Below are positions 1 through 17,778 of a DNA stretch of 64,000 bases, one piece after another. The notes beneath the pieces were generated by a model. That model was not told where the DNA came from and did no database searches. It worked only from the letters and a program-made list of their open reading frames with translations. Position numbers and translations under genes: made by a program. This DNA is from Candidatus Nomurabacteria bacterium (lineage in GTDB: Bacteria > Patescibacteriota > Minisyncoccia > Phycocordibacterales > UBA918). Within the stretch, counting starts at the first letter, position 1. Each line of letters begins with the position of its first letter. The stretch is from NCBI GenBank assembly GCA_020632095.1, contig JACKGF010000001.1:134549-198548 (forward strand), written 5' to 3'.

Positions 1-290
1 AAATTCACAATATGCCTTGCAGGCATTTGTTCATTTGTGTGTTCATAAGTACAAAAAAGATTTTTTGAGCATCGTATAATGAAAGAGTATTTACGAGGGA
101 GGTAATCAATTAGCATTACTGAACGTACTTTTTGTGTACGTGAGCACTTCAGCCAAGTGTGACTTCGTAAGTATGCTTACAGTGCATTTTTATAGAGCGG
201 AGTGGAGACCACTCTATGGTACGAGTTTATTCTCGTCTGTTTCTTACCACAAGTAAACAGACTGTAGGGCTAAATACAACGTAGAGTAAT

Positions 291-1436
291 ATGAATCGAG
301 CTTCAAACTCATTCTCATTACTCCAAGCAACTGCAGCGACCTTAGGCCTAGCCATGCTCTTATGGTCATTTGGTCTACCGTCACTCCGCTTTGCGGAAGC
401 TGCCAATGTCACCTCTTTTAGCGATACACTATCGGACTCAGCTCCCAGTGTTGTAGCTAATCACACTATCCAGTTTGTAACACCAACCGGTCTTGCAGCT
501 GGAGAAATTATTAGTCTAACGTTCCCTGCTGGGTTTACTGGCATCGGAGCTTTAACGGCGGAGGATCTTGATCTTAAAGTCAACGGTGTCGACCAGGATT
601 TAGATGATAATCCTGCCAGTGGCGCAATCTGGAATGTAACTGCTGCGGGTCAAGTAATTGACATCGAAAGTGGTACTGACACGGTTGGTCCTGGAGAAAC
701 AGTGATTATCGAGATTGGTCTAAACGCCAGTTACGCTAGTACTAGTGATAGCCAAATCACTAACCCAGCTGGTCTAACTTCATACGAAATTGGACTTACA
801 CTCAGTAACAGTGATACTGGTAAAACTAGAGTAGCTATTGTTGACTCAGTTACAGTAACTGCTTCGGTTGATACTTTGTTTACCTTTACGGTGAATGGAG
901 TAGCTGCTGGAACATTGGTTAACACAGCTGATTCAACAGGTGGAGACACTACAGCAACGGCGATTCCTTTTGGAGTTCTTGATGCTGATACAGCTAGTAC
1001 TGCAGCCCAAAACATTGAAGTGTCTACCAACGCAGCTAATGGTTTTGTGGTAACAGTCGAAACTGACCACCAGCTACTTTCTGCCAACGGTGCTGATATC
1101 GACGGTTTCCGTAACGGAAGCTACGATGCTTCACCAGTAGCTTGGGAATCACCAGGAGCAACGCCTGGACAAGAAAATGAATATGGTCACTGGGGTATTT
1201 CGTCTAACGATACTACTCTTACCGGTGGTTTAAGCGATTTCTTTTCTGGCGGTGATAACTTTGTGTCTGCATCCACAACTCCAGTTGAGGTGTTCCGACA
1301 TGATGGTCCTACTGATGGTACCGTAGCTGGTGAAGGTAATGCCGACATCATCTACATGGTTGAAACTACTGCTTTGCAGGAAGCAGCCGAAGACTATACT
1401 GCTACATTGACATATGTAGCAACACCAGTGTTCTAA
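291..1436 (+). CDS. secreted Thr/Ser/Gly-rich cell-surface protein; stand-alone homolog of the C-terminal ~280-aa domain of the giant protein 7914..14057 (ends ...YVATPVF)
   Basis: 381-aa ORF. N-terminal signal peptide (LGLAMLLWSFGLPSLRFAEA followed by AANVT). Low-complexity beta-type composition. C-terminal 30 aa DIIYMVETTALQEAAEDYTATLTYVATPVF aligns with DVVYRVMVTEMQPAGDYETNIVYIAVPVF at the end of the 2047-aa protein; further upstream blocks also align (STNAANGFVV / STNATEGYQV). Confidence 0.6.
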   Translation: MNRASNSFSLLQATAATLGLAMLLWSFGLPSLRFAEAANVTSFSDTLSDSAPSVVANHTIQFVTPTGLAAGEIISLTFPAGFTGIGALTAEDLDLKVNGVDQDLDDNPASGAIWNVTAAGQVIDIESGTDTVGPGETVIIEIGLNASYASTSDSQITNPAGLTSYEIGLTLSNSDTGKTRVAIVDSVTVTASVDTLFTFTVNGVAAGTLVNTADSTGGDTTATAIPFGVLDADTASTAAQNIEVSTNAANGFVVTVETDHQLLSANGADIDGFRNGSYDASPVAWESPGATPGQENEYGHWGISSNDTTLTGGLSDFFSGGDNFVSASTTPVEVFRHDGPTDGTVAGEGNADIIYMVETTALQEAAEDYTATLTYVATPVF

Positions 1437-1507: not shown

Positions 1508-2623
1508 ATGTGTACAGATAAAGAATATGACGGTATTAGTTGCTATAATAAGTTAATGTTAAATTCAGCGCGTTTTCTAGTGGGAATATTCCTAGGAAGT
1601 ATTTTTTTGATTCCGTTGTACTCTGAAGCCGCTTCGCTATACATAGATCCAGCTATCAGTACTCTAAATAGAGGTGATTCAGCCAAGATGGTGCTTCGTC
1701 TTGATACAGATGAGGCAGCTGAAGAGTGTGTTAATGCTGTCGATGGTGTGGTTACTTATTCGGATAATATTGAACCAGTAGACGTTTCGATTGGAAATTC
1801 AATTTTTAACATGTGGGTTGAGAGGCCTGTTATTAATAAAGAAAATAAAACAATTACCTTTGCTGGCGGTATACCAAATGGATATTGCGGTCGTGTGCAG
1901 GGTGATCCAAGGTTAACTAACATAATTGCCGAAATCGTATTTCGTTCGCCAGGTTTTTCAGTTGGTGCAGGGAGTAATGTTGAAAATACCGCTACAGTTG
2001 ACTTTACTTCCTCAAGTACGGCATACCTAAATGATGGTTTTGGTACTAAAGCTGATTTAAATTTGTATGGAGCTAAAATAGAACTTAATAAATCGGCTGG
2101 GGCAACAATGATTAATCCTTGGAAAGACGAAATTGAAGCTGATGATATCTTGCCGGAAAAGTTTAGCATTTCATTACAAAAAGACGACAAAGCTTTTTCA
2201 GGTAAGTACTACATAGTTTTTAGTACAACTGATAAACAAACTGGTATTGATCACTATGAAGTGATGGAGGAGCCTTTAACACAATTCGGTTCGTTTCAGT
2301 GGGGAAGAGCAGATGCTCCTTGGCTGATGGTCAAACAACCGCCAGTTCATGTTCTTAAAGATCAATCACTCAATAGTATAATCAGAGTTAAAGCGATTGA
2401 TAAAGCAGGTAATGAATACATTGCAACTTATATTCCAGATGATTCACTTAGAACCTTTTCAAGAAGTGAGTTTCTAGTGTATGGATTTGGGATTGCTGGC
2501 TTGATAATAATTATTATTGTTGGGCTGGCAGTCTTCACTTATGTAAAGAAAAAAAGACGAAGTAAAACTGATGATAGGGTAGATATTGAAGATGATTCAG
2601 ACGCTAATAATCTTGAAGAGTAA
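1508..2623 (+). CDS. cohesin-like domain surface protein with C-terminal TM anchor (paralog 1); alternative start ATG 1556
   Basis: 371 aa. The signal peptide is best from M at 1556 (MLNSARFLVGIFLGSIFLIPLYSEA). N-terminal ~150 aa (ASLYIDPAISTLNRGDSAKMVLRLDTDE...NMWVERP...TFAGGIPNGY) is homologous to the N-termini of 2625..4394 and 5089..5847. C-terminal hydrophobic helix GFGIAGLIIIIIVGLAVFTYV followed by KKKRRSK stop-transfer. Confidence 0.6.
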   Translation: MCTDKEYDGISCYNKLMLNSARFLVGIFLGSIFLIPLYSEAASLYIDPAISTLNRGDSAKMVLRLDTDEAAEECVNAVDGVVTYSDNIEPVDVSIGNSIFNMWVERPVINKENKTITFAGGIPNGYCGRVQGDPRLTNIIAEIVFRSPGFSVGAGSNVENTATVDFTSSSTAYLNDGFGTKADLNLYGAKIELNKSAGATMINPWKDEIEADDILPEKFSISLQKDDKAFSGKYYIVFSTTDKQTGIDHYEVMEEPLTQFGSFQWGRADAPWLMVKQPPVHVLKDQSLNSIIRVKAIDKAGNEYIATYIPDDSLRTFSRSEFLVYGFGIAGLIIIIIVGLAVFTYVKKKRRSKTDDRVDIEDDSDANNLEE

Positions 2624-2624
2624 T

Positions 2625-4394
2625 ATGATCTTTATAAAAAAACATAGATTAATAGGACAGATACACCCATTTTTTTTAGCGATTCTAATTGGAGTTACAT
2701 TCTTTTTTCTTTCGATCTCTATAACGGAAGCCGCCTCTTTGTCACTGTCACCAAATACCGGGGTGTACTCAACTAATGGTACTTTTTCAGTGAAGGTGCA
2801 AGTCAATACGGGTGGTCAAGCTATTAATGCAGCTGAAGGAACACTTTCTTTCAATCCGAGAGAACTATCGGTCGTATCAGTTAATCGTACTGGTTCAATT
2901 TTCAATTTATGGGTTGCAGAGCCAACCTTTTCTAATAGTGCTGGTACTATAAATTTTAGCGGTGGCTTACCATCTGGTTATAGTAGTGCGGTTGGAAACA
3001 TAATGAATATCACTTTTCGAGCCGCTGGAGCTGGTACCGCTCGGGTGTCATTTACCAATGGCTCAGTGCTGGCTAATGATGGTCGAGGTACCAATGTACT
3101 GACGGCAATGAATGGTGGAACGTACACTATACAAGCACAATCTGAGGCTCCAAAAGCCGAGGTTATTGAATATGTCGCTCCAGCCAATACTCCGGCTGCC
3201 CCGATTGTAAATTCAAAGACTCATGGTGATCAAAAGGCATGGTATAAAAGTAAAGAAGCAATTTTGTCCTGGACACTACCAAGCGGTGTAACTGCTGTAA
3301 GAACTTTGTTGGACGAAAGTCTAACGACAGTTCCTACTAAAGTCTACGAGAACCCAATTAGCACTATTACACTTAGTGATCTACCTGATGGTGAGTCTTA
3401 TTTCCATGTTCAATTTAAAAATGCTGATGGTTGGGGTAAGGTTACTCACTATCGATTAGCAGTCGATAGTGAACGTCCAACTAGTATTGAGATATCTCAA
3501 GCAAGTGGTTATGATTTAGGTAATCCAAACCAAATTTTGAGTGTAAAAGTTGAGGATGAGACTAGTGAAGTGAAAAGGTATAAGGTTAAACTTGATACGG
3601 ACGAACCTTTTGAATACATTGATGAGACTGGTTCCAGCACCATTCCTTTACCAGCGCTTAATCCAGGCTACCACAACGCCTTCATCGAAGCGTTTGACGA
3701 AGCAGGTAATAGTATAACCGGTGCTTTCTCATTTACGATTGAGGCCTTCAGTAAACCAATCTTTACTGATTATCCATCAGAAATAAATGAAGAAGTAATA
3801 CCTGTTATTAAAGGTTTAACTCGACCAAATGCAAAGATTGAGGTGTTTGTGCGTAGAGTTGGCAGTGAACCAAATTCCTACAATATTTCAAGTAATGATG
3901 CTGGAGAATTTGTTTTCATACCAGAAGGAACTTTCCAGACAGGTGTGTATGAATTATCAGCTCAAGCGACTGATGAATATGGCGCTCTTAGTGATGTGTC
4001 AGAAGTGATTAAAATAGCTGTCCAACAGCCTGGTTATTTAAGAGTCGGTTCAATGATTGTAGATGCTCTGTCTGTAGTAATTCCACTTATTGTTTTGGTC
4101 CTTTTCTTGATTGTTGGCACATGGTATTTAATAGCTTACCTTGGTCGCTTTAGGAGACGAGTGCGAGTAGAGTCTTTTGAAGCGTTGGAGATTTTGCATC
4201 GCGAGTTTTCTTCTTTACAGAAAACCTTACGTGATCAAGAGTTAGTAATGATTGAGTCAAGAAAAACTAAGAAATTAACCAAGGCCGAGTCTGATATGAT
4301 TGGTGTGCTTGATAACGCCTTATTGGCTGCACAAAGTAAGGTAGAGAAGGAGATAGAAGACGTGACCGAATTAACCCGTAAGAATAGTAACTAA
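2625..4394 (+). CDS. cohesin-like domain large surface protein with C-terminal TM anchor and coiled-coil cytoplasmic tail (paralog 2)
   Basis: ORF track start 2586 overlaps the upstream gene; in-frame ATG 2625 directly follows the upstream stop (taATATG) and gives a signal peptide (FFLAILIGVTFFFLSISITEA). Domain ASLSLSPNTGVYSTNGTFSVKVQVNTGG...NLWVAEP...NFSGGLPSGY is paralogous to 1508 and 5089. TM VVIPLIVLVLFLIVGTWYLIAY near the C-terminus, then a charged coiled-coil tail. Confidence 0.6.
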   Translation: MIFIKKHRLIGQIHPFFLAILIGVTFFFLSISITEAASLSLSPNTGVYSTNGTFSVKVQVNTGGQAINAAEGTLSFNPRELSVVSVNRTGSIFNLWVAEPTFSNSAGTINFSGGLPSGYSSAVGNIMNITFRAAGAGTARVSFTNGSVLANDGRGTNVLTAMNGGTYTIQAQSEAPKAEVIEYVAPANTPAAPIVNSKTHGDQKAWYKSKEAILSWTLPSGVTAVRTLLDESLTTVPTKVYENPISTITLSDLPDGESYFHVQFKNADGWGKVTHYRLAVDSERPTSIEISQASGYDLGNPNQILSVKVEDETSEVKRYKVKLDTDEPFEYIDETGSSTIPLPALNPGYHNAFIEAFDEAGNSITGAFSFTIEAFSKPIFTDYPSEINEEVIPVIKGLTRPNAKIEVFVRRVGSEPNSYNISSNDAGEFVFIPEGTFQTGVYELSAQATDEYGALSDVSEVIKIAVQQPGYLRVGSMIVDALSVVIPLIVLVLFLIVGTWYLIAYLGRFRRRVRVESFEALEILHREFSSLQKTLRDQELVMIESRKTKKLTKAESDMIGVLDNALLAAQSKVEKEIEDVTELTRKNSN

Positions 4395-4400
4395 TACAAT

Positions 4401-5087
4401 ATGAACACTGAAAAAAAATCAGAATGGTTGAACGTAAAAAATATACTGGTCGCCCTAGTGGGAATAATCGTTATGTACTTCATAGTGACAACATTAGTAG
4501 ACTTAAGGTTTCAGGCCCTAGAGATTGCTACTAAAGTCAGGATTTCTGATCAAGAAGCTTTGCTGGATAAAATTGCAGAAATAACTGCTAGAAATGGAGC
4601 AGATAGTGTTACTGAATCAATCATAAAAGATTGCTCTGTAACTGAGAGAATCCAGTTTGATACTTTACTAGGTCATTTAAATAATGGTTTGGACAAAACT
4701 GAGTTAGTTGAATTGGAGAGGTTGTTTGGTCGTTGTGGAAGATTTTTTTCAGATCGAAAGTCAGTTATGGTATCTCGTTTATCAAGAGAAGTTGAAATAT
4801 ATAGCGATTATGTTGACCAATTAAGTACTATTACTGGTCATAGTCAAACAACATCTTTTCCAGTAGGAGAGTGGGAGGCTCTAGCTAAGGCAGAAAGGAA
4901 ACAAGCTGAGTATTCAGTTGAACTAGTGCGTTTGCAAGATGCAATAATCTCAACTTTGTTATTAGGCAAAAACGCAGAGTCTGAAGAAATTAACGAAATA
5001 CTAAAACAGGTTCAAGAAGTTCAAACAAATTTATATGAAGCAAAAAAAGCTACCATAGATATTACTAATAGCCTGTCTTCTTTGTAA
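4401..5087 (+). CDS. N-terminally membrane-anchored coiled-coil protein, function unknown
   Basis: 228 aa. One N-terminal TM (ILVALVGIIVMYFIVTTLV). The rest is predicted helical/charged. No recognisable catalytic motif. Confidence 0.45.
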   Translation: MNTEKKSEWLNVKNILVALVGIIVMYFIVTTLVDLRFQALEIATKVRISDQEALLDKIAEITARNGADSVTESIIKDCSVTERIQFDTLLGHLNNGLDKTELVELERLFGRCGRFFSDRKSVMVSRLSREVEIYSDYVDQLSTITGHSQTTSFPVGEWEALAKAERKQAEYSVELVRLQDAIISTLLLGKNAESEEINEILKQVQEVQTNLYEAKKATIDITNSLSSL

Positions 5088-5088
5088 G

Positions 5089-5847
5089 TTGATATTTATT
5101 ATGGGTCGAATTGTAAATTACTTTAAAAATATATTTAAAGAAAAACCGAAAAAATATACAATTCGATTCATGTTTCCTGCGCTTATAATGTTCGCGGCTA
5201 TATTTGGAGCCGCAGCAGTAAGTACTAGTCAGCAATCATATATCAGACTTGAGTCGACAGAATCTACTATTGAAGCAGGGAAAAGATTTACCTTAAACGT
5301 TTATGCTAATGCACATGTACCGGTTAACGCTGTAGACGTGACGCTTAAGTTTGACCCTAAGGCAGTAAAAGTGATGGAGGTCGATAGAGGTCAATCTGTT
5401 TTGACTATCTGGACTCAAGATCCAATTATTCAGGAGAACAGTGTCATTCTAAGGGGAGGAACCTTTAAAAGAGGTTTTATTGGTGAACATAAGATTGCTT
5501 CAATTGATCTCTTGGCCCTAAGTACTGGTCAAAGTAGCTTAAGTGCAACTAACGTTGTTTTGTTGGCTGGAGATGGAAAGGGTACTCCGGTGACTGTTGG
5601 TCAAAATGACAAATCATCAGTCAATTTGTATATATATGACGAGAACACTAGTCTCGAAAGTATTGGGGTTAATGTCGCAATTAAAATCATAACTGACATT
5701 GATGGTGATGGTAAGGTTAGTCTAAAAGACATTAGTGCGTTTATGGCAGCATGGGCTAATAAAGACGTTTCTTACGATTTTAATGGTGATGGTAAGATGA
5801 CATTTCGAGACTTCTCTATAATTCTTGCCGATTTCTTCTTTAAGTAA
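5089..5847 (+). CDS. cohesin-like domain protein with C-terminal type-I dockerin (paralog 3)
   Basis: 252 aa. N-terminal TM/signal (FMFPALIMFAAIFGAAAV). Domain SYIRLESTESTIEAGKRFTLNVYANAHVP...LTIWTQDP...RGGTFKRGF is paralogous to 1508 and 2625. The C-terminus DIDGDGKVSLKDISAFMAAW...DFNGDGKMTFRDFSIILADF is a canonical duplicated Ca-binding dockerin repeat. Confidence 0.65.
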   Translation: MIFIMGRIVNYFKNIFKEKPKKYTIRFMFPALIMFAAIFGAAAVSTSQQSYIRLESTESTIEAGKRFTLNVYANAHVPVNAVDVTLKFDPKAVKVMEVDRGQSVLTIWTQDPIIQENSVILRGGTFKRGFIGEHKIASIDLLALSTGQSSLSATNVVLLAGDGKGTPVTVGQNDKSSVNLYIYDENTSLESIGVNVAIKIITDIDGDGKVSLKDISAFMAAWANKDVSYDFNGDGKMTFRDFSIILADFFFK

Positions 5848-6000: not shown

Positions 6001-7881
6001 ATGTCACAAAAAAGTACAAAAATTAAAATCACTAACAATCTATCGACTAGTCAGGGGCGCCGTGCAAGCGAGCGTTCTACTAGGGTATTTGGTGGTGCCA
6101 GAGATCCTTCCGTTCAGGAAACAGTTTTCTTGTACAAGTTAGTTTTCAATACTAGAAAAGCAGTCCTGCTGTCAGTTTTGTTGTTGTTATGTTTTGTGTC
6201 TCAACCATTTCAAAATGTTTATGCTGAAGAAACAACTGCTGACATTGTCCCAGCTTCAGCCAAGGTAGAGATACCTCCAGAATTTACTCAAGAAACTGTT
6301 AAGGCCGAAGTGATTTCGGAAGCACCTAGTCAGAAGAGTGAAGAAATATCAACTGATGTCTCAAAAGATATTGCTTTAGTTGATAATGGCCCGCCAGAAG
6401 TTATCGCTACTGATCAAGAACCTGAAAAAGCTACTTCTAGTAGTGCGGTTGTAGTATCTAAGTCAGCTAGTACAACAAAAGTTGTTTCTGCTGTGACAGA
6501 GGCTAGTGCTTCAAGTAGTGAAATAATAAATATAGACACTTCAAGTATAGTCTCAACTTCAACTCAAAAATCTACCTCGACACTACTTAGTGACGAGTCT
6601 TCAGGTGGCACAAGTGGAGGTTCTGGAACTACTGACTCTAACGAAGATCAAACACCAGATGAAGAGCTAGACTCAGATACTACTGCTTCTAGTACCGAGA
6701 TTACTGACGTTGGTAAAGTCGACAATGAAGAAGTCTCGGCTGATGATAATTCTGTTGATGAGATTAATGACGAGGTTGGGTCGGGTAGTGGTGTATTGGA
6801 AAGTGCAGATGTAGAAATATCTGATGAAGTTGATGAGGTTGGTACAAATGATAATCTAGTCTCATATGTTGAAAGTGACTCACAGTTTTCTTTCCTTAAA
6901 AGTGAATGCACTAGAATTGAAGAAGGTTCATTTTACTGTCAGAAGAAAGACTCTTCTGTACACACAGAAGACTCCTTAGTAGCTGCTCCTGACGCAGATG
7001 GTGATTTGGAAATATACCTAGTACGGGACGGTGAACGGACCCAGATTACACATAATAAAGTCGATGATGCTTCGCCTTACTATGATGAATATTCAAAGAC
7101 AATTGTATGGCACCGTCTGGTAAATGATCGATATCAAATTATTTCTTATGACACCAATACAGGTAAAGAAGTTCAGTTGACTGATACTGATGTTAACAAT
7201 ATGGAACCAACTCGACACGGAGAATACACAGTTTGGCAACGTTGGGTGCATGATAACTGGGAGATAATGTTATTTGATGGTTCTAAAGAGAAACAAATTA
7301 CTAATTCTTCTAGACACGATATTGCTCCACATGTTAGAGGACCATTGATCATATGGAATAGTCGTTCTAACGACGGTACACAGTCTCTAATGACTTATGA
7401 CATTAAAGATAGAACCTATACCACTATTGCTGATGGTGAAGGTGTTTCGGTGTCTAACCCAAGATTGATGGTTATGTATGAAGCGATGTATGAAAATGGT
7501 GATGTTGTGATGAAAGGATTTGACGTGGTAACTGGTAAAATCATGCCCCTTCAATCCTTACCTCAGGAATTGCCGACAGATTTACCAAATACCGATTCAA
7601 CTGGAGAGACTAGAGCCTTAATTCAAACTAAGCCAGCTCCCAAGCAGTCAGAGATAGTGAATAATAATGAAACAACGTCAAGTGGTAGTTCAACTCCACC
7701 TATCTTACCTGACATAGATATTGATCAAACATTAGATTTGCGTGCAACCAGTACTGTCGATATCGAGCAGGTAAACGAAGTGTTTGAGAGTCCAACTTCC
7801 ACTATCCCAGACCTAGTAGTTCCGATCGCTACGTCATCACCTGATACCTCTTCAAGTTCACAGACTACTGCTGAATCATAA
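6001..7881 (+). CDS. secreted Ser/Thr/Asp/Glu-rich protein with C-terminal TolB/PD40-like beta-propeller repeats
   Basis: 626 aa. Hydrophobic signal/anchor (AVLLSVLLLLCFVSQPF). Long acidic S/T-rich low-complexity middle. The C-terminal half has repeated motifs typical of TolB-like propeller blades (GDLEIYLVRDGERTQITHN..., YQIISYDTNTGKEVQLTD..., WEIMLFDGSKEKQITNS..., QSLMTYDIKDRTYTTIADGEG). Confidence 0.55.
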   Translation: MSQKSTKIKITNNLSTSQGRRASERSTRVFGGARDPSVQETVFLYKLVFNTRKAVLLSVLLLLCFVSQPFQNVYAEETTADIVPASAKVEIPPEFTQETVKAEVISEAPSQKSEEISTDVSKDIALVDNGPPEVIATDQEPEKATSSSAVVVSKSASTTKVVSAVTEASASSSEIINIDTSSIVSTSTQKSTSTLLSDESSGGTSGGSGTTDSNEDQTPDEELDSDTTASSTEITDVGKVDNEEVSADDNSVDEINDEVGSGSGVLESADVEISDEVDEVGTNDNLVSYVESDSQFSFLKSECTRIEEGSFYCQKKDSSVHTEDSLVAAPDADGDLEIYLVRDGERTQITHNKVDDASPYYDEYSKTIVWHRLVNDRYQIISYDTNTGKEVQLTDTDVNNMEPTRHGEYTVWQRWVHDNWEIMLFDGSKEKQITNSSRHDIAPHVRGPLIIWNSRSNDGTQSLMTYDIKDRTYTTIADGEGVSVSNPRLMVMYEAMYENGDVVMKGFDVVTGKIMPLQSLPQELPTDLPNTDSTGETRALIQTKPAPKQSEIVNNNETTSSGSSTPPILPDIDIDQTLDLRATSTVDIEQVNEVFESPTSTIPDLVVPIATSSPDTSSSSQTTAES

Positions 7882-7913: not shown

Positions 7914-10900
7914 ATGTATCAACTGCGCACATTAGAACGTGTTAAAAGTAGTGTTTCTGCAGGATTGATTTTTTCAATTGCTATGCAGCTGTTTGGAGTT
8001 TTGCTACTGCAGATTGTTTTATTGTACCCACAGGCGGTTGAAGCAGCTGAGGTGGTGATTGATAGTACAGTAAGTACGAATGCGGCTGCTAACACATTTG
8101 CTGGTGCGCAGACAGCTTTTACTGATGATCAAACCGGCTATACTTTTTATCGAGATAGTAATAACACTTGTGTTTATAGTAAGACTACTGATGGAGGAAA
8201 TACGTGGGGTTCTGCTGTTACTGTCGATAGTCAAACTGACTGTCTGGAAATTGTTATTTGGTACGACCGTTGGACTCCGGGTGATAGTACTGGAAATTAC
8301 ATTCATATTTCCACTATGGACAGTGGGGATGATGACCTTTTTTATAATCGTCTCGATACAACCAGTGATACTCTGTTGATGGGGTCTGCACCGGTTAATG
8401 TTTCAACCAGTTCTGGACAAGTGCCATCATTGGCAAACACTGTTAACGCTCAGACTATTACCAAAGCAACTGACGGTAAAATCTACATGGCTGTTAATGA
8501 CGTGAGTGATTCATTTGTGGTGTCTTGCTCTGCGAGTTGTGAAACTGAGTCAAATTGGACTGAAGTTGGGACTAGCCCATATGACAGTACAAATGACTTT
8601 AACTTACTAGTTCCTCTGTCAGGAGGAAATGTAATGACCATAAACAGAGATATTTCAGCTGATGATATCCGTTCGGCAATTTGGGATGGAGCTAATTGGT
8701 CGGGGTGGACTAATATTGATATTAACGCTCCTGAAAATTCAACTTTCGATGTCGGGATGTCTGTCACTGTAGATGTTGATACCGGGAGCATCTATCTGGC
8801 TTATGTTGCTGATAATAACGACATGGTAACGGCGGATCATGATATTAGAACAGCTGTCTATACGTCTGGGGTTTGGACAAATAAGACAGACGTTTTGACC
8901 AATGTCTCTGGCCGGGGTATTCATAATACAGCTATTGCCTATGATCAAAATAAAGGTGATGTGTATGTTTCTTATGCAATTGAGGATACTATTGGTACTC
9001 CTACTAGCGCCAATATCTATTGGAAGAAATCAACAGATGGAATGACTACTTGGGGCACAGAACAAGGCCCGATCAATACTACCAGTGGAAATATATATGG
9101 CCCATCATTAAACCTAAATAGTCACGAAAGAATTTATGCTACTTGGTATGATCCAGCAGTTAATGATCGATTTGGTAATACTGTGGCTGATATCGGGCCC
9201 GATACTATTTTGGCCTCAATCGGAACTCAGGTTTCGTCAATCAAGACCAATGATACAGGTGTATATCTAGGGGGTGCATTTACAGTTAAATCGATTTCTA
9301 GTCGAACTATTTCTACTTTTAAAATTACAGAGAAAGGCACTGTTGATGCACAAAATGATTTGAATAACATTAAACTTTTTTACGACCTAGATGTTTCTTT
9401 TCCATACGACTGTGTTAGTGAATCATACTCCGGTGGAGAGTCTCAATTTGGTGTGACAGATACCAATGGTTTCTCTGGAGTTGATGGCACATCAAATTTT
9501 ACCGGTTCAATTGTTAATGTGACACCGACTCAGACTATGTGTGTGTATGTTGTGCTTGATGTATTGAGTACAGCCAATGATACTGATACGATTGAAATTG
9601 AAGTTACAAATCCTTCTACTGATGTAACAGTTTCTGGCGAAACTGTTTATCCTGCTACATCGATTGAAATAGCTAGTACTACAAATATCGTTAGTCCAGA
9701 TTTAACCCAAATTCACTATCATTGGCGAAATGATGATGGAACAGAAAGTGGAGCAACCTCAGCTACGGCTGGTGCGGAAGACACTCCCATTAGTTCACTA
9801 ATAAAAGAGACTCCGATCAGGCTACGTATGGAAGTCTCAAATGAAGGTTCAACCTCAACTGATGCAACGTTTCAGCTTGAATACGGTCTAGCGGCGCCAA
9901 CCTGTGGTGATGTTGCTAGTTGGACTGACGTAGGTGCAACTGATGATGCTTGGAATATGTATCCGACCGCTAATTTAAACGATGGTGATAGTACGACGGA
10001 TATTTCAAATACAATCGGTGGAGTCACTTTTGAAAATTCAAATTTTCTGAGTCCAAACTATGGTGTTAAAGATGCATTCTCAACGACTAGTAGTTTGACT
10101 CTCGATACTATAGATTACGTTGAATTAGAGTTTTCATTAGTAGCCTCTAGTTCTGCGGTGGAAGGAGAGACGTATTGTTTTCGGCTGACTGATTCTGGTA
10201 CGCCATTAAACACTTACAGTGTTATTCCACAAGCGACAATCAGCGCCGATATTATAGCGGCAGCAGTTGGGACTCATATAACTAATGCTGACATACCGAC
10301 TACCGCCGCTTATCTGGGGGGCTCATTTTCACTAAAGTCAACTTCTGGCTCACATACAATCACTAACGTTACAATTACTGAAACTGGAACGATTGATGCC
10401 TCGACCGGGCTTAGTAATATAAAATTATTCTATGAATCGGATCTGAGTAATCCTTACGATTGCACCAGTGAATCCTACGCAGGAACCGAGACTCAGTTTG
10501 GTGGTACAGATACTGATGGATTTAGTGGTCCAAATGGTACTTCGACTTTTTCTGACTCGGTTGGCATTACGGCTACCAGCACGTTGTGTTTGTATGTTGT
10601 TTCAGATATTACCACCTTACCAATTAATGGTGAAACAGTATCTTTTCAAATCACTTCACCAACCTCTGATGTAGTGGCAGGGGCTTCTTCTGTCGCTCCG
10701 GGTACACCTATTTCAATTACAGCCTCTACTACCTTGCAAGGTGGGCTCCTTACCCAAACACATTATCATTGGCGATACAACAATGGTGGTGAAAGTACTT
10801 CAACTTCAGCCACTTTTGGAAACGAAGATACTCCGGTTACAGATTTTGATTTGTCTTCAAAGATTCGCCTTCGTCTTGGTGTTTCAAATGAGGGTGCTAC

Positions 10901-13900
10901 TTCGTCAGTTGCTACTAGATTTAGACTAGACTATGCCCCTAAGATTACTACCTGTGATGTGGTGTCAGTTTGGACCGATGTTAATGGTGTTGCAGATGAT
11001 AGTTGGGATATGACAGACTCTATATATCTAACTAACGGTGAGGATACAGCTAATATTGCTGAAGCGATTGGTGGTTTAACTGATGAAAACAGCAATTATC
11101 TATCCTCAAACGGTGGAGTTAGGGATACTGAATCATTGACAGCCAGTACAACCTTGACGGAGTTAAACTATGTGGATTTGGAATACAGCATCAAGTCAAC
11201 CATCAGTACCCCAAATGATGCAACTTTCTGCTTTAGGGTTAGTGCCAACGGCACGTCACTACCAGCTTATACAAATTACGCTGAAATTACAACAGCTAAA
11301 AAACGCGATTTTAAGGTACAGCGTGGAACTACCACAATTTCTGGCACATCGGTTACATTGGTGGCTGGAGTTGACTACGATGTGCCTCAGGTTGCCACCT
11401 CTTCATTTATCCGTATTACAAATAGTCACTACACTGGTGCTGGAGATACAACTCTTGGTGGTGCCCAAAATGCTGACGATGTAACTGCTTATATCTCCAA
11501 TCCAGAAAATATTCTTACAAGTGTTACTTTTAATCGGTTGGGTGCAGTTAATGATACTTATATTGATTGGGAGATAGTAGAGTTTGTAGGTACTCCAAGT
11601 ACCGATAATGAGATGGTGGTTAGAGACGTGGGGTCGGTAACTATTAGTAGTGGGGCGCTAGTGGCAACAGGCACAACAATATCAGTTACCGATGATAGTG
11701 ATGTAGTAGTTTACATCACTGGTATTAGAAATCGAAACACCTCAAGAAACTACTACGCTGGACAAGTAACGTCAGCTTGGGATGCTGCAAGTGATGCGCC
11801 CGTATTTACTAGAGGTGCTACTGGAGGTTCTATTGTTGACGTTAGTTATGCAGTAGTTGAGTATGTTGGTATGAATTGGAATATCCAACGAGCTGAACAT
11901 ACCTACACCGCGTCAGGTGTACCTGAACCAGAGGCAATTACACCGGTTGGTTCCTTGTCTCAAACATTTATTCATGCCCAGAAACGAATGGGAGCAAGTA
12001 CTAATGTGGTACATTTTGGACATACCGTTTGGTTGCCTAGCATCAGCTATTTATCGCTTGAACTTGAAACTGGTGCTGATACAGGTGTTGGTCAAACTGC
12101 CGTTGTATGGATAATAGAAAATACTCAAACTGGTTCAAATGCAATGCAGGTTCAAAGATTGAGTGGAAACACTTCTGGTGGTGCTGAACCGTTAATATTA
12201 GAAATCGGTATACCAATTCATCTTGATTCTAGCAGTAATAGTTCAATTTTTGTAAGTAGTAGGGCAGCTGGTACTAATAATGGCTACCCTCGACCGATAA
12301 TGGGTGCCAGAATTACTTCGACATCAACCCTAGAATTATGGCGAAGTGACACCGGGACAACTCTTAATTATAGAATTGAATTAGTAGAATGGCCGGTGGC
12401 TGACTTAGCTCAGAGACAAAATTACTATCGATTTTACGTAGATAATGACGCATTAACCCCAAGCGACCCTTGGCCAGCTGGTGCTACCAACCTTGGAGAG
12501 AACACTAGTATTACCGATGCTGACGATCCTCCGGGGGCGGATGTTTACTTAAGACTTCGTATGTCAGTACGTATTGCAAATGCAAATCTTCCCGCTGGAT
12601 TTCAACAATACAAACTGCAGTACGCAGAAAGGGCGGTAACTTGTTCAGCTACTACTGATTGGCACGATCTGGGTGATACTGCTAGCTCAAGTATATGGCG
12701 TGGCTATCCGGGGTCAGGTACTAGTGATGGAGATAATTTGTCATCAGATCCGTATTTGCCGGGTGACTTGTTAATTTCAGTGTCTGACGTGGCTGGTCGA
12801 TTGGAGCATGAAAACCCATCAGCCGTAAACTCATATCCTGTGCTTGATGGGGAAGATGTTGAGTATGATTGGTATATTCAACATAATGGAGCAAATCCAG
12901 ATACTGTCTATTGTTTCAGAATGATAAAAGATGATGGATTGCTACTAGAAGGCTATCTAAATTACCCACAAATTAAAACAGCTGGTTTTCAGCCAGCTTC
13001 AAAGAATTGGCAGTGGTACGATGATCCTGATAATGAGACACCAGCTAGTCCAGCCGCAGCTGAAAATGTCACGCCAAGCAATATTGCAATTGACGATACT
13101 TTAGCTCTCCGAGTGACTGTTAAAGAATTATCAAACGTTCCTGGGGCAGATATTAAATACAAACTGCAATTTTCTGATGATATAAACTTTGTTAATCCTG
13201 TTGATGTTGTGGCAACTAGTTCTTGTGTTGAGAATTCCCTTTGGTGCTACTACGAAGGTGGGGGAGTTGACAATGATCTAATTACAACCTCACTGCTAAC
13301 TGATGGGGATGGGTGTGTTGGTGGAGCGGGTAATGGTTGTGGAACTCATAATGAATCAGCTACGTATGTAACCGGACACCTACATGGTGCTACTAGAGCT
13401 CAGGAATATTCATTCACGATTAAGCAAGCAGGAGCGCGGGTAAATGCCATTTATTATTTTAGACTGGTTGAAATACTTAGTTCTGATGTTGTAATTCTGG
13501 ATACCGGTGAAACCTATCCGTCAGTACAAGTTGGTCCTTCGACTTTGTCATTCTCGGTGGCTGGTTTGCCGGCTGGTACTACAACCGCTAGTGTGGTGAC
13601 AGATGCTACTACTACAGCAACTAGTGTTGGTTTTGGTTCGATTCCGTTTAATAATGATCAGATAGCTGCTCAGAGAATTTCAATTAGCACAAATGCTACT
13701 GAAGGTTACCAAGTCCTTCAATACGCTGGTCAGGATTTGACTAGTAGTAATGGAACAACAATTAATTCTGTAAGTTCAACCAACGCCACTCCGAGCGGTT
13801 GGGCGACAGCTTGTCTCGGAACAGCTACTGGCTGTATCGGATACCATACGACTGATGCGATTTTGGAAGGTGGATCAGCTCGTTTTGCACCGTCGGACAC

Positions 13901-14057
13901 CTATGCACCTCTACATACCGATCCACAAGAAATTATCTATAGTTCAGTTCCAGTCGATAGTACAGAGGATGTTGTGTATCGGGTGATGGTAACTGAAATG
14001 CAACCAGCTGGAGATTATGAGACTAACATTGTCTATATAGCCGTTCCGGTCTTCTAG
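7914..14057 (+). CDS. giant (2047 aa) secreted surface protein: N-terminal BNR/sialidase-like propeller, two ~349-aa tandem repeats, several R-W-x-N-D-D-G modules, C-terminal PVF domain
   Basis: Signal peptide (IFSIAMQLFGVLLLQIVLLYPQAVEA). BNR motifs S-x-D-x-G-x-T-W (SKTTDGGNTWGS, KKSTDGMTTWGT). Tandem repeat aa ~430-660 vs ~780-1010 (YLGGAFTVKS...HYHWRNDDGTESGATSATAGAEDTP...IRLRMEVSNEG vs YLGGSFSLKS...HYHWRYNNGGESTSTSATFGNEDTP...IRLRLGVSNEG). Similar modules recur (YYRFYVDND..., NWQWYDDPDNE...). The C-terminal domain is shared with 291..1436. Confidence 0.7.
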   Translation: MYQLRTLERVKSSVSAGLIFSIAMQLFGVLLLQIVLLYPQAVEAAEVVIDSTVSTNAAANTFAGAQTAFTDDQTGYTFYRDSNNTCVYSKTTDGGNTWGSAVTVDSQTDCLEIVIWYDRWTPGDSTGNYIHISTMDSGDDDLFYNRLDTTSDTLLMGSAPVNVSTSSGQVPSLANTVNAQTITKATDGKIYMAVNDVSDSFVVSCSASCETESNWTEVGTSPYDSTNDFNLLVPLSGGNVMTINRDISADDIRSAIWDGANWSGWTNIDINAPENSTFDVGMSVTVDVDTGSIYLAYVADNNDMVTADHDIRTAVYTSGVWTNKTDVLTNVSGRGIHNTAIAYDQNKGDVYVSYAIEDTIGTPTSANIYWKKSTDGMTTWGTEQGPINTTSGNIYGPSLNLNSHERIYATWYDPAVNDRFGNTVADIGPDTILASIGTQVSSIKTNDTGVYLGGAFTVKSISSRTISTFKITEKGTVDAQNDLNNIKLFYDLDVSFPYDCVSESYSGGESQFGVTDTNGFSGVDGTSNFTGSIVNVTPTQTMCVYVVLDVLSTANDTDTIEIEVTNPSTDVTVSGETVYPATSIEIASTTNIVSPDLTQIHYHWRNDDGTESGATSATAGAEDTPISSLIKETPIRLRMEVSNEGSTSTDATFQLEYGLAAPTCGDVASWTDVGATDDAWNMYPTANLNDGDSTTDISNTIGGVTFENSNFLSPNYGVKDAFSTTSSLTLDTIDYVELEFSLVASSSAVEGETYCFRLTDSGTPLNTYSVIPQATISADIIAAAVGTHITNADIPTTAAYLGGSFSLKSTSGSHTITNVTITETGTIDASTGLSNIKLFYESDLSNPYDCTSESYAGTETQFGGTDTDGFSGPNGTSTFSDSVGITATSTLCLYVVSDITTLPINGETVSFQITSPTSDVVAGASSVAPGTPISITASTTLQGGLLTQTHYHWRYNNGGESTSTSATFGNEDTPVTDFDLSSKIRLRLGVSNEGATSSVATRFRLDYAPKITTCDVVSVWTDVNGVADDSWDMTDSIYLTNGEDTANIAEAIGGLTDENSNYLSSNGGVRDTESLTASTTLTELNYVDLEYSIKSTISTPNDATFCFRVSANGTSLPAYTNYAEITTAKKRDFKVQRGTTTISGTSVTLVAGVDYDVPQVATSSFIRITNSHYTGAGDTTLGGAQNADDVTAYISNPENILTSVTFNRLGAVNDTYIDWEIVEFVGTPSTDNEMVVRDVGSVTISSGALVATGTTISVTDDSDVVVYITGIRNRNTSRNYYAGQVTSAWDAASDAPVFTRGATGGSIVDVSYAVVEYVGMNWNIQRAEHTYTASGVPEPEAITPVGSLSQTFIHAQKRMGASTNVVHFGHTVWLPSISYLSLELETGADTGVGQTAVVWIIENTQTGSNAMQVQRLSGNTSGGAEPLILEIGIPIHLDSSSNSSIFVSSRAAGTNNGYPRPIMGARITSTSTLELWRSDTGTTLNYRIELVEWPVADLAQRQNYYRFYVDNDALTPSDPWPAGATNLGENTSITDADDPPGADVYLRLRMSVRIANANLPAGFQQYKLQYAERAVTCSATTDWHDLGDTASSSIWRGYPGSGTSDGDNLSSDPYLPGDLLISVSDVAGRLEHENPSAVNSYPVLDGEDVEYDWYIQHNGANPDTVYCFRMIKDDGLLLEGYLNYPQIKTAGFQPASKNWQWYDDPDNETPASPAAAENVTPSNIAIDDTLALRVTVKELSNVPGADIKYKLQFSDDINFVNPVDVVATSSCVENSLWCYYEGGGVDNDLITTSLLTDGDGCVGGAGNGCGTHNESATYVTGHLHGATRAQEYSFTIKQAGARVNAIYYFRLVEILSSDVVILDTGETYPSVQVGPSTLSFSVAGLPAGTTTASVVTDATTTATSVGFGSIPFNNDQIAAQRISISTNATEGYQVLQYAGQDLTSSNGTTINSVSSTNATPSGWATACLGTATGCIGYHTTDAILEGGSARFAPSDTYAPLHTDPQEIIYSSVPVDSTEDVVYRVMVTEMQPAGDYETNIVYIAVPVF
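9190..9890 (+). repeat. intragenic tandem repeat unit 1 (period 1047 nt) inside the giant protein gene
   Basis: The unit anchored at Y-L-G-G (nt 9264) is repeated at nt 10311. Protein-level identity is roughly 45-50% over ~230 aa; the DNA copies are diverged. Confidence 0.6.
10240..10940 (+). repeat. intragenic tandem repeat unit 2
   Basis: Second copy of the ~349-codon unit (YLGGSFSLKS ... FRLDYA), with matching landmark motifs. Confidence 0.6.
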
Positions 14058-14077: not shown

Positions 14078-15088
14078 ATGAATCGTCTAATAATTAAATT
14101 TGCAGGTGTCCTATTGTTACTGGTTTTGTTGATACCGACAAATTTAGCTTTCGCTGCAATCACTATACGGCCTTTTTTGATAGACGAAACCTACCAGCCT
14201 AGAGACTCAGAAGTAAAAACAATTACTTTGACGAGTGATTATCCTAGTCGTAAAGCGGTTTTGTATGCGACTGTTAATGAAATTACGGTTGATTCAGAAG
14301 GAGAGATAAAAGAGTTTGTTACACCAGTAATGACCGACAGGACTAACACTGTCACAAGTTGGGTAGAAATTACTAGAGGCAGGATTGAGTTAATGCCAGG
14401 TGAAAAAATTGAAGTACCCCTCAAACTAAAAATTCATCCTTATGCAGAGCCCGGAGAGTATCATGTTTTTATCGGCTTTGTTGAGACACCTAAGCGAGAC
14501 CAGGCAGAAGCTGTTGCAATGGCAGGTAAAGCTGATGGGGTGATTGTGAAAATTACTATTGCTGATGATAGAGAGGACAGTATGAAGATAAGTAGCTTTC
14601 TGATTGATCGTTTTGTTACCGGTGAAGATAAGCGTCTGATAGATATTGAGGTTGAGAACCTTGGTGATTTACCGTCTGCACCCAAGGGTGAAATTGTTTT
14701 CTATGACTCGAGAGGTGTTGAAATCAATTCTGTGCCAGTTAATAGTGAAGGAGTCGTAATTGAGCCTGGAGAGAAAGCTAGTCTAAAAAGTTCGGTACCG
14801 CTTGATGATACTTTAGGTAGATTCAAGGCTAATGTAACTTTAAATTACGGTGACAAAATGCAGGCGTCTTTGTTTGACACCACATCATTTTACATGATGC
14901 CTATGAACTTACTCTTAATGGTATTTGGCAGTATTTTAATATTGTCCATAATTGTCGCTCTCCTGTTCAGAAGGATGCTAGCTGGTGAGGCTAGGGATGA
15001 AGATGGAGATGAAGTTGTAATGTATATCCGTGAAGGCCATGACGCTAATCCGCAAGACCATGACATTGACCTTAAGAACAAAGCTTAA
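14078..15088 (+). CDS. secreted two-domain protein with C-terminal TM anchor and acidic tail (DUF916/DUF3324-like architecture; paralog of the next gene)
   Basis: 336 aa. Signal peptide (FAGVLLLLVLLIPTNLAFA). N-terminal block ITIRPFLIDETYQP...SWVEITRGRIELMPGEKIEVPLKLKIHPYAEPGEYHVFIGF parallels ISISPTIFEASANPGQ...EWLSVKHETLKIPSEQSIQVPFSISVPSDAPPGGHF in the next gene. C-terminal TM LLLMVFGSILILSIIVALLF. The family name is a guess. Confidence 0.55.
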   Translation: MNRLIIKFAGVLLLLVLLIPTNLAFAAITIRPFLIDETYQPRDSEVKTITLTSDYPSRKAVLYATVNEITVDSEGEIKEFVTPVMTDRTNTVTSWVEITRGRIELMPGEKIEVPLKLKIHPYAEPGEYHVFIGFVETPKRDQAEAVAMAGKADGVIVKITIADDREDSMKISSFLIDRFVTGEDKRLIDIEVENLGDLPSAPKGEIVFYDSRGVEINSVPVNSEGVVIEPGEKASLKSSVPLDDTLGRFKANVTLNYGDKMQASLFDTTSFYMMPMNLLLMVFGSILILSIIVALLFRRMLAGEARDEDGDEVVMYIREGHDANPQDHDIDLKNKA

Positions 15089-17217: not shown

Positions 17218-17778
17218 ATGCTAGTGACATTAGATAAATCAAATTACAAAACACTGCTATTTTTGTTTCTGGTAGTACTAGGAATGGCTGTTTTAACATG
17301 GTTTGTACTAAATCGAAAACAGGATACCGTCGAAGTCCCTGCGGTTAAAGCACTTGAAGCTCCGCAAGACCAATCACCATTTACTGACCTTGAAGGTAAC
17401 GCTGTTGGTTTAACGAGTTACGTTGGTGAAGTAATTGTCGTTTCCTCATGGGCCAGTTGGTGTCCAAGTTGTGTTGATAGTTTAAAAGAACTTTCCCTGC
17501 TGTCTGGATTATATGGTGATGAGGTTAAAATTCTGGCAGTAAATCGCAGTGACCAAGCAAACATCGCTAAAGCTTTTTTGAAGAAATATGAAATTTCAAA
17601 TACGGTGGAACTTGTATTGGATGAAGATGATAGATTTTTTAAAAAAATTGATGGCTACACCATGCCGGAAACAGTTATTTATGACCACAAAGGAAGAGAA
17701 GTTTTTCACAAACATGGAGTAACTTCAGTGGTTGAATTGAAATTAATAATTGATGAGATTTTGGTTGAGGGAGAGTAG
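17218..17778 (+). CDS. TlpA/ResA-like membrane-anchored thiol-disulfide oxidoreductase (thioredoxin fold)
   Basis: 186 aa. N-terminal TM (TLLFLFLVVLGMAVLTWFVL). Thioredoxin CxxC active site WASWCPSC. Length and layout fit the TlpA family. Confidence 0.75.
   Translation: MLVTLDKSNYKTLLFLFLVVLGMAVLTWFVLNRKQDTVEVPAVKALEAPQDQSPFTDLEGNAVGLTSYVGEVIVVSSWASWCPSCVDSLKELSLLSGLYGDEVKILAVNRSDQANIAKAFLKKYEISNTVELVLDEDDRFFKKIDGYTMPETVIYDHKGREVFHKHGVTSVVELKLIIDEILVEGE

Follow-up and report, generated by a model that had tools for sequence, protein, structure and literature searches.

Cohesin and dockerin modules encoded in a divergent Pam-type pilus gene cluster of Parcubacteria

Introduction

Bacteria of the candidate phyla radiation (CPR) represent a large share of bacterial diversity and many of them are host-attached; little is known of the ways in which they make their attachment fibres and keep hold of them. 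A 64-kb stretch of the genome of an ultra-small Candidatus Nomurabacteria bacterium (assembly GCA_020632095.1, contig JACKGF010000001.1, positions 134,549 to 198,548, forward strand; the whole stretch is called the window, and coordinates below refer to it) contains three neighbouring genes, g2, g3 and g5, whose products share an N-terminal beta-domain resembling cohesins, and the product of g5 ends in a dockerin-like duplication. What would a cohesin-dockerin pair do in such a cell? A preliminary description made from the sequence alone regarded it as a cellulosome-style docking system on the cell surface. The analysis reported here places the three genes in a cluster with genes for Pam-type pilins and suggests that the cohesin-dockerin set may anchor a donor-strand pilus to the membrane.

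Three neighbouring genes encode proteins with a common cohesin-like domain

The three genes have the following layout (aa, amino acids; nt, nucleotides; TM, transmembrane).

g2, 1508..2623 (+): 371 aa; the NCBI start is at 1556, giving 355 aa
g2 layout: signal peptide; cohesin-fold domain, ~nt 1631-2098; FnIII/Ig-like domain, ~nt 2162-2431; C-terminal TM helix, nt 2471-2527; short charged tail
g3, 2625..4394 (+): 589 aa; signal peptide; cohesin domain, ~nt 2730-3134; Ig-like Big_13 domains
g3 C-terminal part (+): TM helix, nt 4056-4112, then a cytoplasmic coiled-coil tail of ~93 aa
g5, 5101..5847 (+): 248 aa; N-terminal signal or anchor; cohesin domain, ~nt 5233-5640; dockerin-like module, nt 5695-5841

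Annotated start codons vary for all three (g2, 371 or 355 aa; g3, 602, 589 or 551 aa; g5, 252, 248 or 225 aa). The longest open reading frame (ORF) of g3 runs from a TTG at 2586 and overlaps the end of g2 (2586-2623); an independent gene call on contig L063 uses 2625 (589 aa), so that g3 is best read from there, in agreement with the preliminary description. The TTG at 5089 that had been taken as the start of g5 is probably 12 nt early, since its orthologs are 247-250 aa long, consistent with the ATG at 5101, which is most likely the start.

Pairwise comparison of the N-terminal domains by BLASTP gave E = 3e-15 for g2 and g3 (31% identity across 170 aa), E = 4e-11 for g3 and g5 and E = 5e-07 for g2 and g5, and profile-profile alignment of the g5 and g2 families (hhalign) gave 93% probability with E = 2.5e-07. 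A hidden Markov model (HMM) of the domain, run on the window's 321 ORFs, matched g2, g3 and g5 only, once each, with no further copy below E = 1; the earlier grouping of three neighbouring ORFs by a common domain is thereby borne out. The motifs named for it hold in part: ASLx[IL]xP and NxW[VT] are present in g2 and g3 and the GG motif in all three proteins, but the first two do not occur in g5, which has IWT there. Two of the proteins are C-terminally membrane-anchored, as had been described, with TM helices at residues 322-340 of g2 (part of a long helix, 303-345, in the model of the 355-aa form) and 478-496 of g3, the latter followed by the 93-aa tail. Both families of cohesin proteins are strongly conserved in Nomurabacteria, Kaiserbacteria and other Parcubacteria (850 and 1507 match clusters, mostly at 55-85% identity).

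The family model for cohesins (Pfam PF00963; gathering score 24.1 bits) gave a mixed answer. No protein of the window reached the gathering score, and g2 and g3 gave no match at all; the g3 ortholog in the related locus L001 passed it with 27.0 bits, and 49 of 70 g5 orthologs matched (E <= 0.01; best 5e-08). Big_13 was found in g3 at 42.2 bits. A sequence search of the PDB with g3 returned nothing useful.

Fold predictions were obtained with AlphaFold2 from alignments of 70-71 sequences and compared with the PDB by Foldseek, taking the best 50 matches per model. For g5 all of these were cohesins (E 1.6e-09 to 2e-06, target TM-score up to 0.80), the best being the Clostridium perfringens modules 2w1n, 2jh2 and 2vo8 (E ~2e-9, target TM-score ~0.8), and the Archaeoglobus fulgidus cohesin 2xdh was also among them. 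The g2 model (mean pLDDT, the predicted local distance difference test score, of 84) matched best to 2w1n, a double module of cohesin and FN3 (E = 6.6e-10), and then almost only to cohesins. No PapD, FimC or RbmA entry appeared among the best 50 matches of either model. The preliminary description had allowed that the domains might turn out to be of CARDB or Big type; the predicted folds match cohesins rather than these, and therefore the domains remain assigned as cohesins, that of g2 on the strength of predicted fold and transitive homology. Judged by homology and modelling, g2, g3 and g5 are genuine cohesin-domain proteins.

A dockerin-like module in g5 and a dockerin protein in relatives

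The C-terminal module of g5 was compared with that of u3, a protein encoded in related clusters of the same type as that in the window (type A, see below).

u3, in type-A relatives, not in the window: signal peptide, Cys-rich DUF4215, Ig domains, dockerin

The g5 tail contains two 12-residue calcium loops of the pattern D-x-[DN]-x-[DN]-G-x5-[DE], in tandem and C-terminal, each followed by a predicted helix. Loop 1 starts at residue 199 (DIDGDGKVSLKD...) and loop 2 at residue 226 (DFNGDGKMTFRD...) of the 248 aa, and the AlphaFold2 model places the helices at 208-220 and 235-247. Across 70 orthologs, D199, D203, G204, D210, D226, D230 and D237 of the loops are invariant or nearly so, and the same is true of residues in the helices. 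The module is the only copy in the window by HMM search of the 321 ORFs.

Dockerin_1 (PF00404; gathering score 22.9 bits) matched 67 of the 70 orthologs (E <= 0.01; best 1.4e-07), g5 of the window itself scoring up to 22.0 bits, and the NCBIfam model dockerin_GC gave 23 bits for g5 (cutoff 29). The module is homologous to the dockerin of u3, which passes Dockerin_1 with 31.8 bits and is near-invariant among orthologs that are only ~70% identical overall. The loops are spaced 27 residues apart in g5 and 31 in u3, the linker between the g5 repeats being unusually short. The term 'textbook' type-I dockerin, used in the preliminary description, therefore needs qualification: the strings are exact and the loop-helix is duplicated, but the score lies below the cutoff, EF-hand models score equally and the spacing departs from that of u3. 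A further dockerin-bearing protein does exist, in the form of u3, two genes upstream of the first cohesin gene in the relatives. From homology and the predicted fold, g5 is assigned a cohesin together with a dockerin.

Pilin-type proteins and candidate chaperones in the same cluster

A Pam pilus was described in 2026 from the Saccharimonadia bacterium Ca. Mycosynbacter amalyticus (bioRxiv 10.64898/2026.03.03.709456). Pam pilins consist of an N-domain, a linker strand that is donated and a truncated Ig-like acceptor C-domain; the components are the pilins PamA/B/E/T, the chaperones PamC/D with C-terminal TM helices, and the terminator-anchor PamR (RbmA-like, 2xFnIII plus TM), which inserts its N-terminal strand into the last pilin and anchors the fibre by its own TM helix. 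That study found Pam pilins mainly in Saccharimonadia and Microgenomatia, and it does not mention cohesin, dockerin, WxL, Parcubacteria or a link to WxLIP (bioRxiv 10.64898/2026.03.03.709456). Five genes of the cluster studied here or of its relatives bear on this system.

g1, 291..1436 (+): 381 aa, secreted Pam-type pilin-like protein with N-domain, linker strand and C-terminal acceptor domain; candidate major pilin
g7, 7914..14057 (+): 2047-aa giant protein with BNR-like N-terminal region, repeated domains and a Pam-pilin acceptor domain at nt 13470-14054; candidate tip adhesin
g8, 14078..15088 (+): signal peptide, two beta-domains, C-terminal TM helix; WxLIP-like, candidate PamC/D-type membrane-anchored chaperone
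g9, 15030..16700 (+): paralog of g8 with an extra membrane segment and C-terminal LytR_C (35.9 bits)
u2, L001 2807-3760: WxLIP-like paralog of g8 and g9 in type-A relatives

The products of g1 and g7 share a C-terminal domain of ~185 residues (E = 7e-15). The NCBIfam model CPR_Pam_pilin_C (NF058581; curated cutoff 55 bits) matched 43 of 44 relatives (E <= 0.01; best 2e-16), one of which also matched PamT (NF058579). Two proteins of locus L062 passed the cutoff, with 58.7 and 90.1 bits, and these pilins directly adjoin chaperone-like, dockerin, cohesin-TM and cohesin-TM genes. In g7 no pilin N-domain was detected and BNR_2 gave a weak match. PDB sequence searches with g1 and with a profile of the pilin C-domain returned nothing useful. 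The C-domain was also considered as a WxL domain, an assignment that was dropped as it had no Pfam WxL match. Long stretches of several hundred residues recur within the g7 protein, in at least two repeats (among them '...FKITEKGTVDAQNDLNNIKLFYDLDVSFPYDCVSESYSGGESQFG...' and '...VTITETGTIDASTGLSNIKLFYESDLSNPYDCTSESYAGTETQFG...'), and together with the weak BNR/sialidase-like N-terminal region these are consistent with a modular adhesin.

Proteins g8 and g9 are paralogs (E = 8e-19) and u2 is the third member of their family. The family profile matched Enterococcus faecium EfmWxLIP1 (PDB 9i25/9i1y) with E = 9e-07, and Pfam WxLIP_PGBD (PF06030) matched 9 of 25 members; none of the NCBIfam Pam chaperone models matched g8, g9 or u2. 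Genes like g9 are present in all three types of cluster described below. Because of their layout of two beta-domains and a TM helix and their WxLIP homology, g8, g9 and u2 rather than g2 and g3 are the chaperone candidates of the cluster. The idea that g2 and g3, with their C-terminal TM helices, are PamC/D-type chaperones was rejected, given the cohesin matches in the fold search and the existence of this separate paralog family. Gene g9 starts 59 nt inside g8 (15030-15088).

On the evidence of its encoded domains we regard the locus as a divergent gene cluster for a Pam-type donor-strand pilus in Parcubacteria/Paceibacteria, and we are highly confident of the module identities and of the pilus context. 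The preliminary description had seen a cluster of surface proteins and overlooked this context, the Pam-pilin C-domain being carried by g1 and g7; its guess that the genes serve attachment machinery and not glycan degradation agrees with it.

Cohesin, dockerin and pilin genes occur together in three cluster types

A scan of species-representative genomes together with contig look-ups yielded ~60 loci, in which domains were mapped by BLAST and jackhmmer. Three cluster types, each with pilin, WxLIP-like, dockerin and cohesin-TM proteins, can be distinguished among ~45 related CPR loci. Type A, to which the window belongs, comprises ~24 loci, including the complete Nomurabacteria genome CP060229, with the gene order u1 (~625 aa), u2, u3, g1, g2, g3, g4, g5, g6, g7, g8, g9. 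Type B (12 loci) has the order pilin, WxLIP-like protein, dockerin protein of ~630 aa, cohesin-TM. Type C (~10 loci, among them L062) has the order pilin(s), WxLIP-like protein, dockerin protein, cohesin(-TM), cohesin-TM. The dockerin gene is immediately upstream of the cohesin gene or genes in types B and C, and in type A the pilin gene g1 lies between them; wherever a type-A locus extends far enough in the upstream direction, u3 is the second gene before the first cohesin gene. Gene g5, which combines cohesin and dockerin in one protein, is present only in type A. Some contigs with a Parcubacteria-type cluster are labelled Acidimicrobiales or Gammaproteobacteria (for example L015 and L040) and many are titled 'uncultured Candidatus Saccharibacteria'; these are probably mis-binned or mislabelled contigs of metagenome-assembled genomes, and taxonomic counts from record titles are unreliable for this reason.

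The N-termini of the dockerin proteins resemble parts of pilins. The ~630-aa protein of type B is made up of a pilin N-domain, Ig domains and a dockerin, without an acceptor C-domain; the similarity of all 12 such proteins to pilins covers the N-domain and the linker strand (E = 3e-10) and is lost beyond it. The dockerin protein of L044 has the strand followed only by a Gly/Pro tether and the dockerin. In type A, and in 7 of 10 type-C dockerin proteins, a strand-like segment directly follows the signal peptide and resembles the pilin linker VTVTA[ST]V. The donor-like N-terminus of type A is ATTTLTLSI and is nearly invariant. Type-C examples with a Gly-rich tether after the strand are DQSVSISAVVTN, LSVTATVV and TLTVTVG, and further type-C strands are LSVTVAAL, TTVQISV and TSVYVII. 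The strand can be set beside the linker of the pilin from the same locus: in L062, DQSVSISAVVTN in the dockerin protein and DQVTVTATVNPT in the pilin; in L048, LSVTATVV and VTVTASV.

A proposed anchor for a donor-strand pilus

A subunit that donates a strand and accepts none would act as a chain terminator. Where such a subunit also has a C-terminal dockerin and its gene lies close to that of a membrane-anchored cohesin, the best interpretation is that it forms the base and tethers the fibre. We consider it on balance probable that the genes form a non-cellulosomal cohesin-dockerin set anchoring a donor-strand pilus, and infer the following binding events, order of assembly and adaptor role of g5. 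The giant protein g7, having the acceptor domain of a pilin only, would start the fibre as tip adhesin, a role that it fits in that this domain stands behind ~1850 residues of BNR-like and repeated domains. In FimH and PapG, too, a receptor-binding domain is placed before the pilin domain. Pilins encoded by g1 would then polymerise, each donating its linker strand to the previous subunit, with the WxLIP-like proteins g8 and g9 (and u2 in relatives) acting as membrane-anchored chaperones. The base of the fibre would be capped by a dockerin subunit that has a donor strand and no acceptor, u3 in type A and the fusion of pilin N-domain and dockerin in another type. Its dockerin would plug, in a Ca2+-dependent manner, into the membrane-anchored cohesins g2 and g3, and this contact would tether the fibre to the cytoplasmic membrane of a cell without an outer-membrane usher. 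Protein g5 may serve as an adaptor, binding one cohesin through its dockerin and presenting its own cohesin in turn. The task of PamR would thus be split between a dockerin subunit and a cohesin-TM receptor. The fuller proposal, that a Parcubacteria/Paceibacteria pilus is anchored by a two-part non-covalent plug and socket (dockerin terminator and single-cohesin membrane receptors) with g5 enabling extension or branching, is tentative, and we rate it as possible rather than probable.

This arrangement departs from a cellulosome. Each of g2, g3 and g5 has one cohesin, so that there is no multi-cohesin scaffoldin; a single dockerin is found in the 64 kb; and no glycoside hydrolase (GH) or carbohydrate-binding module (CBM) domains were found in the locus proteins scanned. 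The set is read as non-cellulosomal, and from the idea of a docking scaffold we retain the anchored cohesins with putative dockerin partners, but not the scaffold.

Several observations count against the proposed anchor or against the assignments on which it builds. In the window, g5 scores 19.8-20.3 bits with Pfam Cohesin (E ~7e-04), below the cutoff, and the model matches 0 of 71 g2 orthologs; the g5 AlphaFold2 model is of only moderate confidence (mean pLDDT 69.8, ~80 in the beta-domain). With Dockerin_1, g5 remains just under the cutoff (21.8-22.0 bits), EF-hand Pfam models score its tail about equally, and a PDB sequence search with the tail returned only EF-hand Ca-binding proteins (best E = 1.4e-05). 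Neither pilin-type protein reaches the curated cutoff of NF058581, the C-terminal domain of g1 alone scoring 27.3 bits over the full model and that of g7 31.1 bits over model positions 3-148 of 148. Proteins g8, g9 and u2 are assigned as chaperones from their architecture and WxLIP homology rather than from a predicted PapD-like fold. A donor strand is not obvious in three of the type-C dockerin proteins (L033, L038, L054), whose N-terminal domain is a different one.

The proposed terminator u3 is, in addition, missing from its usual place in this species. Contigs L063 and L064, with an identical g1, extend 178-200 nt past the left edge of the window (L063 1-178, L064 1-200), and over the resulting ~470 nt upstream of g1 (window 1-290 plus ~180-200 nt) none of the six frames is open, and the sequence could not be aligned with u3 from two other genomes. 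The u1-u2-u3 block, including the proposed terminator, is thus not at its usual position, and with that position empty the dockerin of g5 is the only one known in the locus here. The most likely dockerin partner, u3, is encoded in relatives beyond the coordinates of the window and is not at that position in this species. Contigs carrying the exact proteins break 468-490 nt upstream of g1, two independent assemblies doing so within 22 nt of each other, which could reflect a repeat or a rearrangement. No match came from a metagenome scan with the upstream contig end, and the contig of a close relative starts at g2. A '...LNWTG*' trace was considered as a relic of u3 and rejected, as the DNA does not align with u3 of the two genomes.

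Alternative explanations

The alternative that survives best is a cohesin-dockerin display system independent of the pilus, in which the membrane cohesins present u3-type adhesins or binding proteins, and g5, at the cell surface, the pilus genes being mere neighbours in an island of surface-protein genes. Non-cellulosomal modules are widespread and tether, for example, substrate-binding components in anaerobic methanotrophic (ANME) archaea (PMC9012536); the Cys-rich DUF4215 and Ig-like domains of u3 could be functional cargo, and the cohesin genes are retained in this species although u3 is not adjacent. Mere neighbourhood is hard to reconcile with the finding that dockerin and cohesin genes accompany genes for Pam-type pilins and WxLIP-like proteins in cluster types of three different arrangements, with the fusion of a dockerin to a pilin N-domain and linker strand in 12 loci, and with the pilin-linker-like strand at the start of most other dockerin proteins. 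We regard an independent display system as unlikely.

It has also to be asked whether the cohesin-like sandwiches are themselves pilin assembly factors (a chaperone, usher or platform like PamC, PamD or PamR) that hold pilins by beta-strand complementation. The layout of g2, with two beta-domains and a C-terminal TM helix, is like that of PamC/D/R, and g2 has no sequence-level cohesin signal. Against such a role, the best 50 Foldseek matches were all cohesins for g5 and nearly all for g2, with PapD, FimC and RbmA absent; Pfam Cohesin matches g3 and g5 orthologs; the cluster has a separate family of chaperone layout with WxLIP homology (g8, g9, u2); and dockerin genes stay near cohesin genes in the three cluster types. 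An assembly factor in place of a cohesin receptor thus appears very improbable.

That the g5 tail is a structural Ca2+-binding EF-hand pair, and the cohesin-like domains generic stalk domains with no docking, is equally hard to credit: the parity of EF-hand and Dockerin_1 scores, the EF-hand proteins as best PDB sequence matches (E = 1.4e-05) and the repeat spacing below that of u3 (27 and 31 residues) speak for it, and the C-terminal position and duplicated loop-helix as in dockerins, the homology to the u3 dockerin that passes the Pfam cutoff, near-invariant helix residues that fit an interaction surface better than a stabilising motif, and the consistent encoding of dockerins near cohesins speak against it.

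The g1 leader and other genes of the cluster

The region directly upstream of g1 and the remaining genes of the cluster were characterised as follows.

g1 5' leader, 108..290 (+): conserved, apparently structured; promoter-like TTGTGT...TACAAT at ~50-115
g4, 4401..5087 (+): small protein with N-terminal TM helix (residues 15-33) and helical domain; conserved in type-A clusters (~24 loci)
g6, 6001..7881 (+): membrane-anchored Ser/Thr/acidic-rich protein with TolB-like beta-propeller (weak match); conserved cluster member

The ~185-nt leader is conserved across Nomurabacteria, Kaiserbacteria and other Paceibacteria in an alignment of 22 loci. RNAalifold predicted 35 pairs, 22 of them compensatory, in 7 helices; the paired fraction of cells was 89.7%, slid controls gave 30-43%, and the observed covariation was attained in 0 of 500 shuffles. 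The hairpins have invariant loops UCAGCC and GUGGAGAC, and a long-range helix closes ~10 nt before the AUG. There was no Rfam match. The leader is a candidate new cis-regulatory RNA for pilin expression.

Domain scans gave no family matches for g4 and no sortase or LPXTG signal in the locus proteins. No PamR-like protein was recognised in the locus, and the best 50 Foldseek matches of g2 contain no RbmA entry. Just downstream of the cluster (17218-17778) is a gene for a membrane-anchored thiol-disulfide oxidoreductase of the DsbE/ResA type (Redoxin, 52.7 bits), also found in L012; it could be relevant to the Cys-rich dockerin subunit and to disulfide-stabilised pilins.

Discussion

The locus extends the Pam-type system to Parcubacteria and suggests a cohesin-dockerin pair as membrane anchor there. 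By homology, its modules belong to known families, the pilus chassis being a distant relative of Pam and the chaperone side being related to Firmicute WxL clusters. The literature searched describes neither the joining of a cohesin-dockerin set with such a pilus nor single-cohesin receptors with a TM helix, nor dockerin subunits that have the donor features of pilins; in that literature we found no paper on cohesin or dockerin in Parcubacteria or on pili anchored by them. If the proposed anchor is correct, this would be the first pilus held by cohesin-dockerin chemistry and would give these modules a cellular role beyond enzyme complexes. Pam pili, Firmicute WxL clusters and cellulosome modules would then belong to a single toolkit for surface assembly in monoderms, and the conservation of the cohesin and dockerin modules at 60-85% identity in hundreds of CPR genomes would be accounted for. 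In practical terms, it would provide compact, orthogonal, Ca2+-switchable binding pairs from a new lineage, and the dockerin terminator and cohesin-TM receptor would serve as markers of attachment loci in uncultured genomes.

Among known systems, the anchoring and adaptor scaffoldins of cellulosomes (OlpA, OlpC and SdbA of Clostridium thermocellum; ScaA of Acetivibrio cellulolyticus) have in common with the proteins described here the cohesin fold (4dh2, 3ul4, 2bm3 and 3ghp were among the matches), the dockerin with its duplicated Ca loop and, as predicted here, a cell-anchored cohesin that receives a dockerin partner; the cohesin-plus-dockerin layout of g5 is that of adaptor scaffoldins. Unlike in cellulosomes, there is one cohesin per protein, anchoring is by a C-terminal TM helix instead of SLH domains or sortase, the locus proteins scanned include neither glycoside hydrolases nor CBMs, the host belongs to the CPR and has a genome of ~1 Mb, and the genes stand in a pilus cluster.

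Closer in structure are non-cellulosomal modules, which provided the best structural matches: the cohesins of the C. perfringens GH84C/GH33 toxin complex (2w1n, 2jh2, 2vo8) and A. fulgidus 2xdh, with ANME modules as a further example. Cohesin and FnIII are paired in 2w1n as in g2, and these modules are likewise used outside fibre degradation. According to the account given in PMC9012536, non-cellulosomal cohesins and dockerins are widespread (Peer 2009) and archaeal cohesin-dockerin pairs were shown experimentally to bind (Haimovitz 2008). In contrast to the present cluster, none of these modules is linked to pilus genes, and identity is only 10-18%. Membrane-anchored single-cohesin receptors and dockerin subunits with pilin-like donor strands are features of the CPR clusters only.

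With the Pam system of Ca. Mycosynbacter amalyticus the cluster has in common a homologous pilin C-domain, a small and a giant protein that share this domain, membrane-anchored two-domain chaperone-like proteins, Sec-dependent components without a dedicated trans-envelope machine, and the concept of a strand-donating terminator that anchors the fibre. It differs in that the pilin domains of the window lie below the curated cutoff, a PamR-like protein was not recognised and the anchor appears to be split into a dockerin subunit and cohesin-TM receptors.

The WxL clusters of Firmicutes encode small WxL, large WxL and WxLIP proteins, the last made up of DUF916, DUF3324 and a TM helix, and the TM-anchored partner is predicted to insert a beta-hairpin into the common C-terminal domain (PMC10599100). 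The likeness lies in a small and a large protein with a common C-terminal domain, a TM-anchored partner with two Ig domains, and the homology of g8, g9 and u2 to WxLIP. WxL proteins are described as peptidoglycan-bound complexes and not as filaments (PMC10599100), and the pilin C-domain here has no Pfam WxL match. The WxLIP homology points to a relationship between Pam pili and WxL systems as assembly systems of the monoderm envelope. To our knowledge, no cohesin or dockerin genes have been described in WxL clusters.

Sortase-assembled pili of Gram-positive bacteria, finally, resemble the proposed system in having a dedicated last subunit that stops polymerisation and fixes the fibre to a monoderm envelope. 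There the linkage is covalent, by isopeptide bonds and to peptidoglycan, whereas here it would be non-covalent, through a donated strand on one side of the base subunit and a cohesin-dockerin contact on the other.

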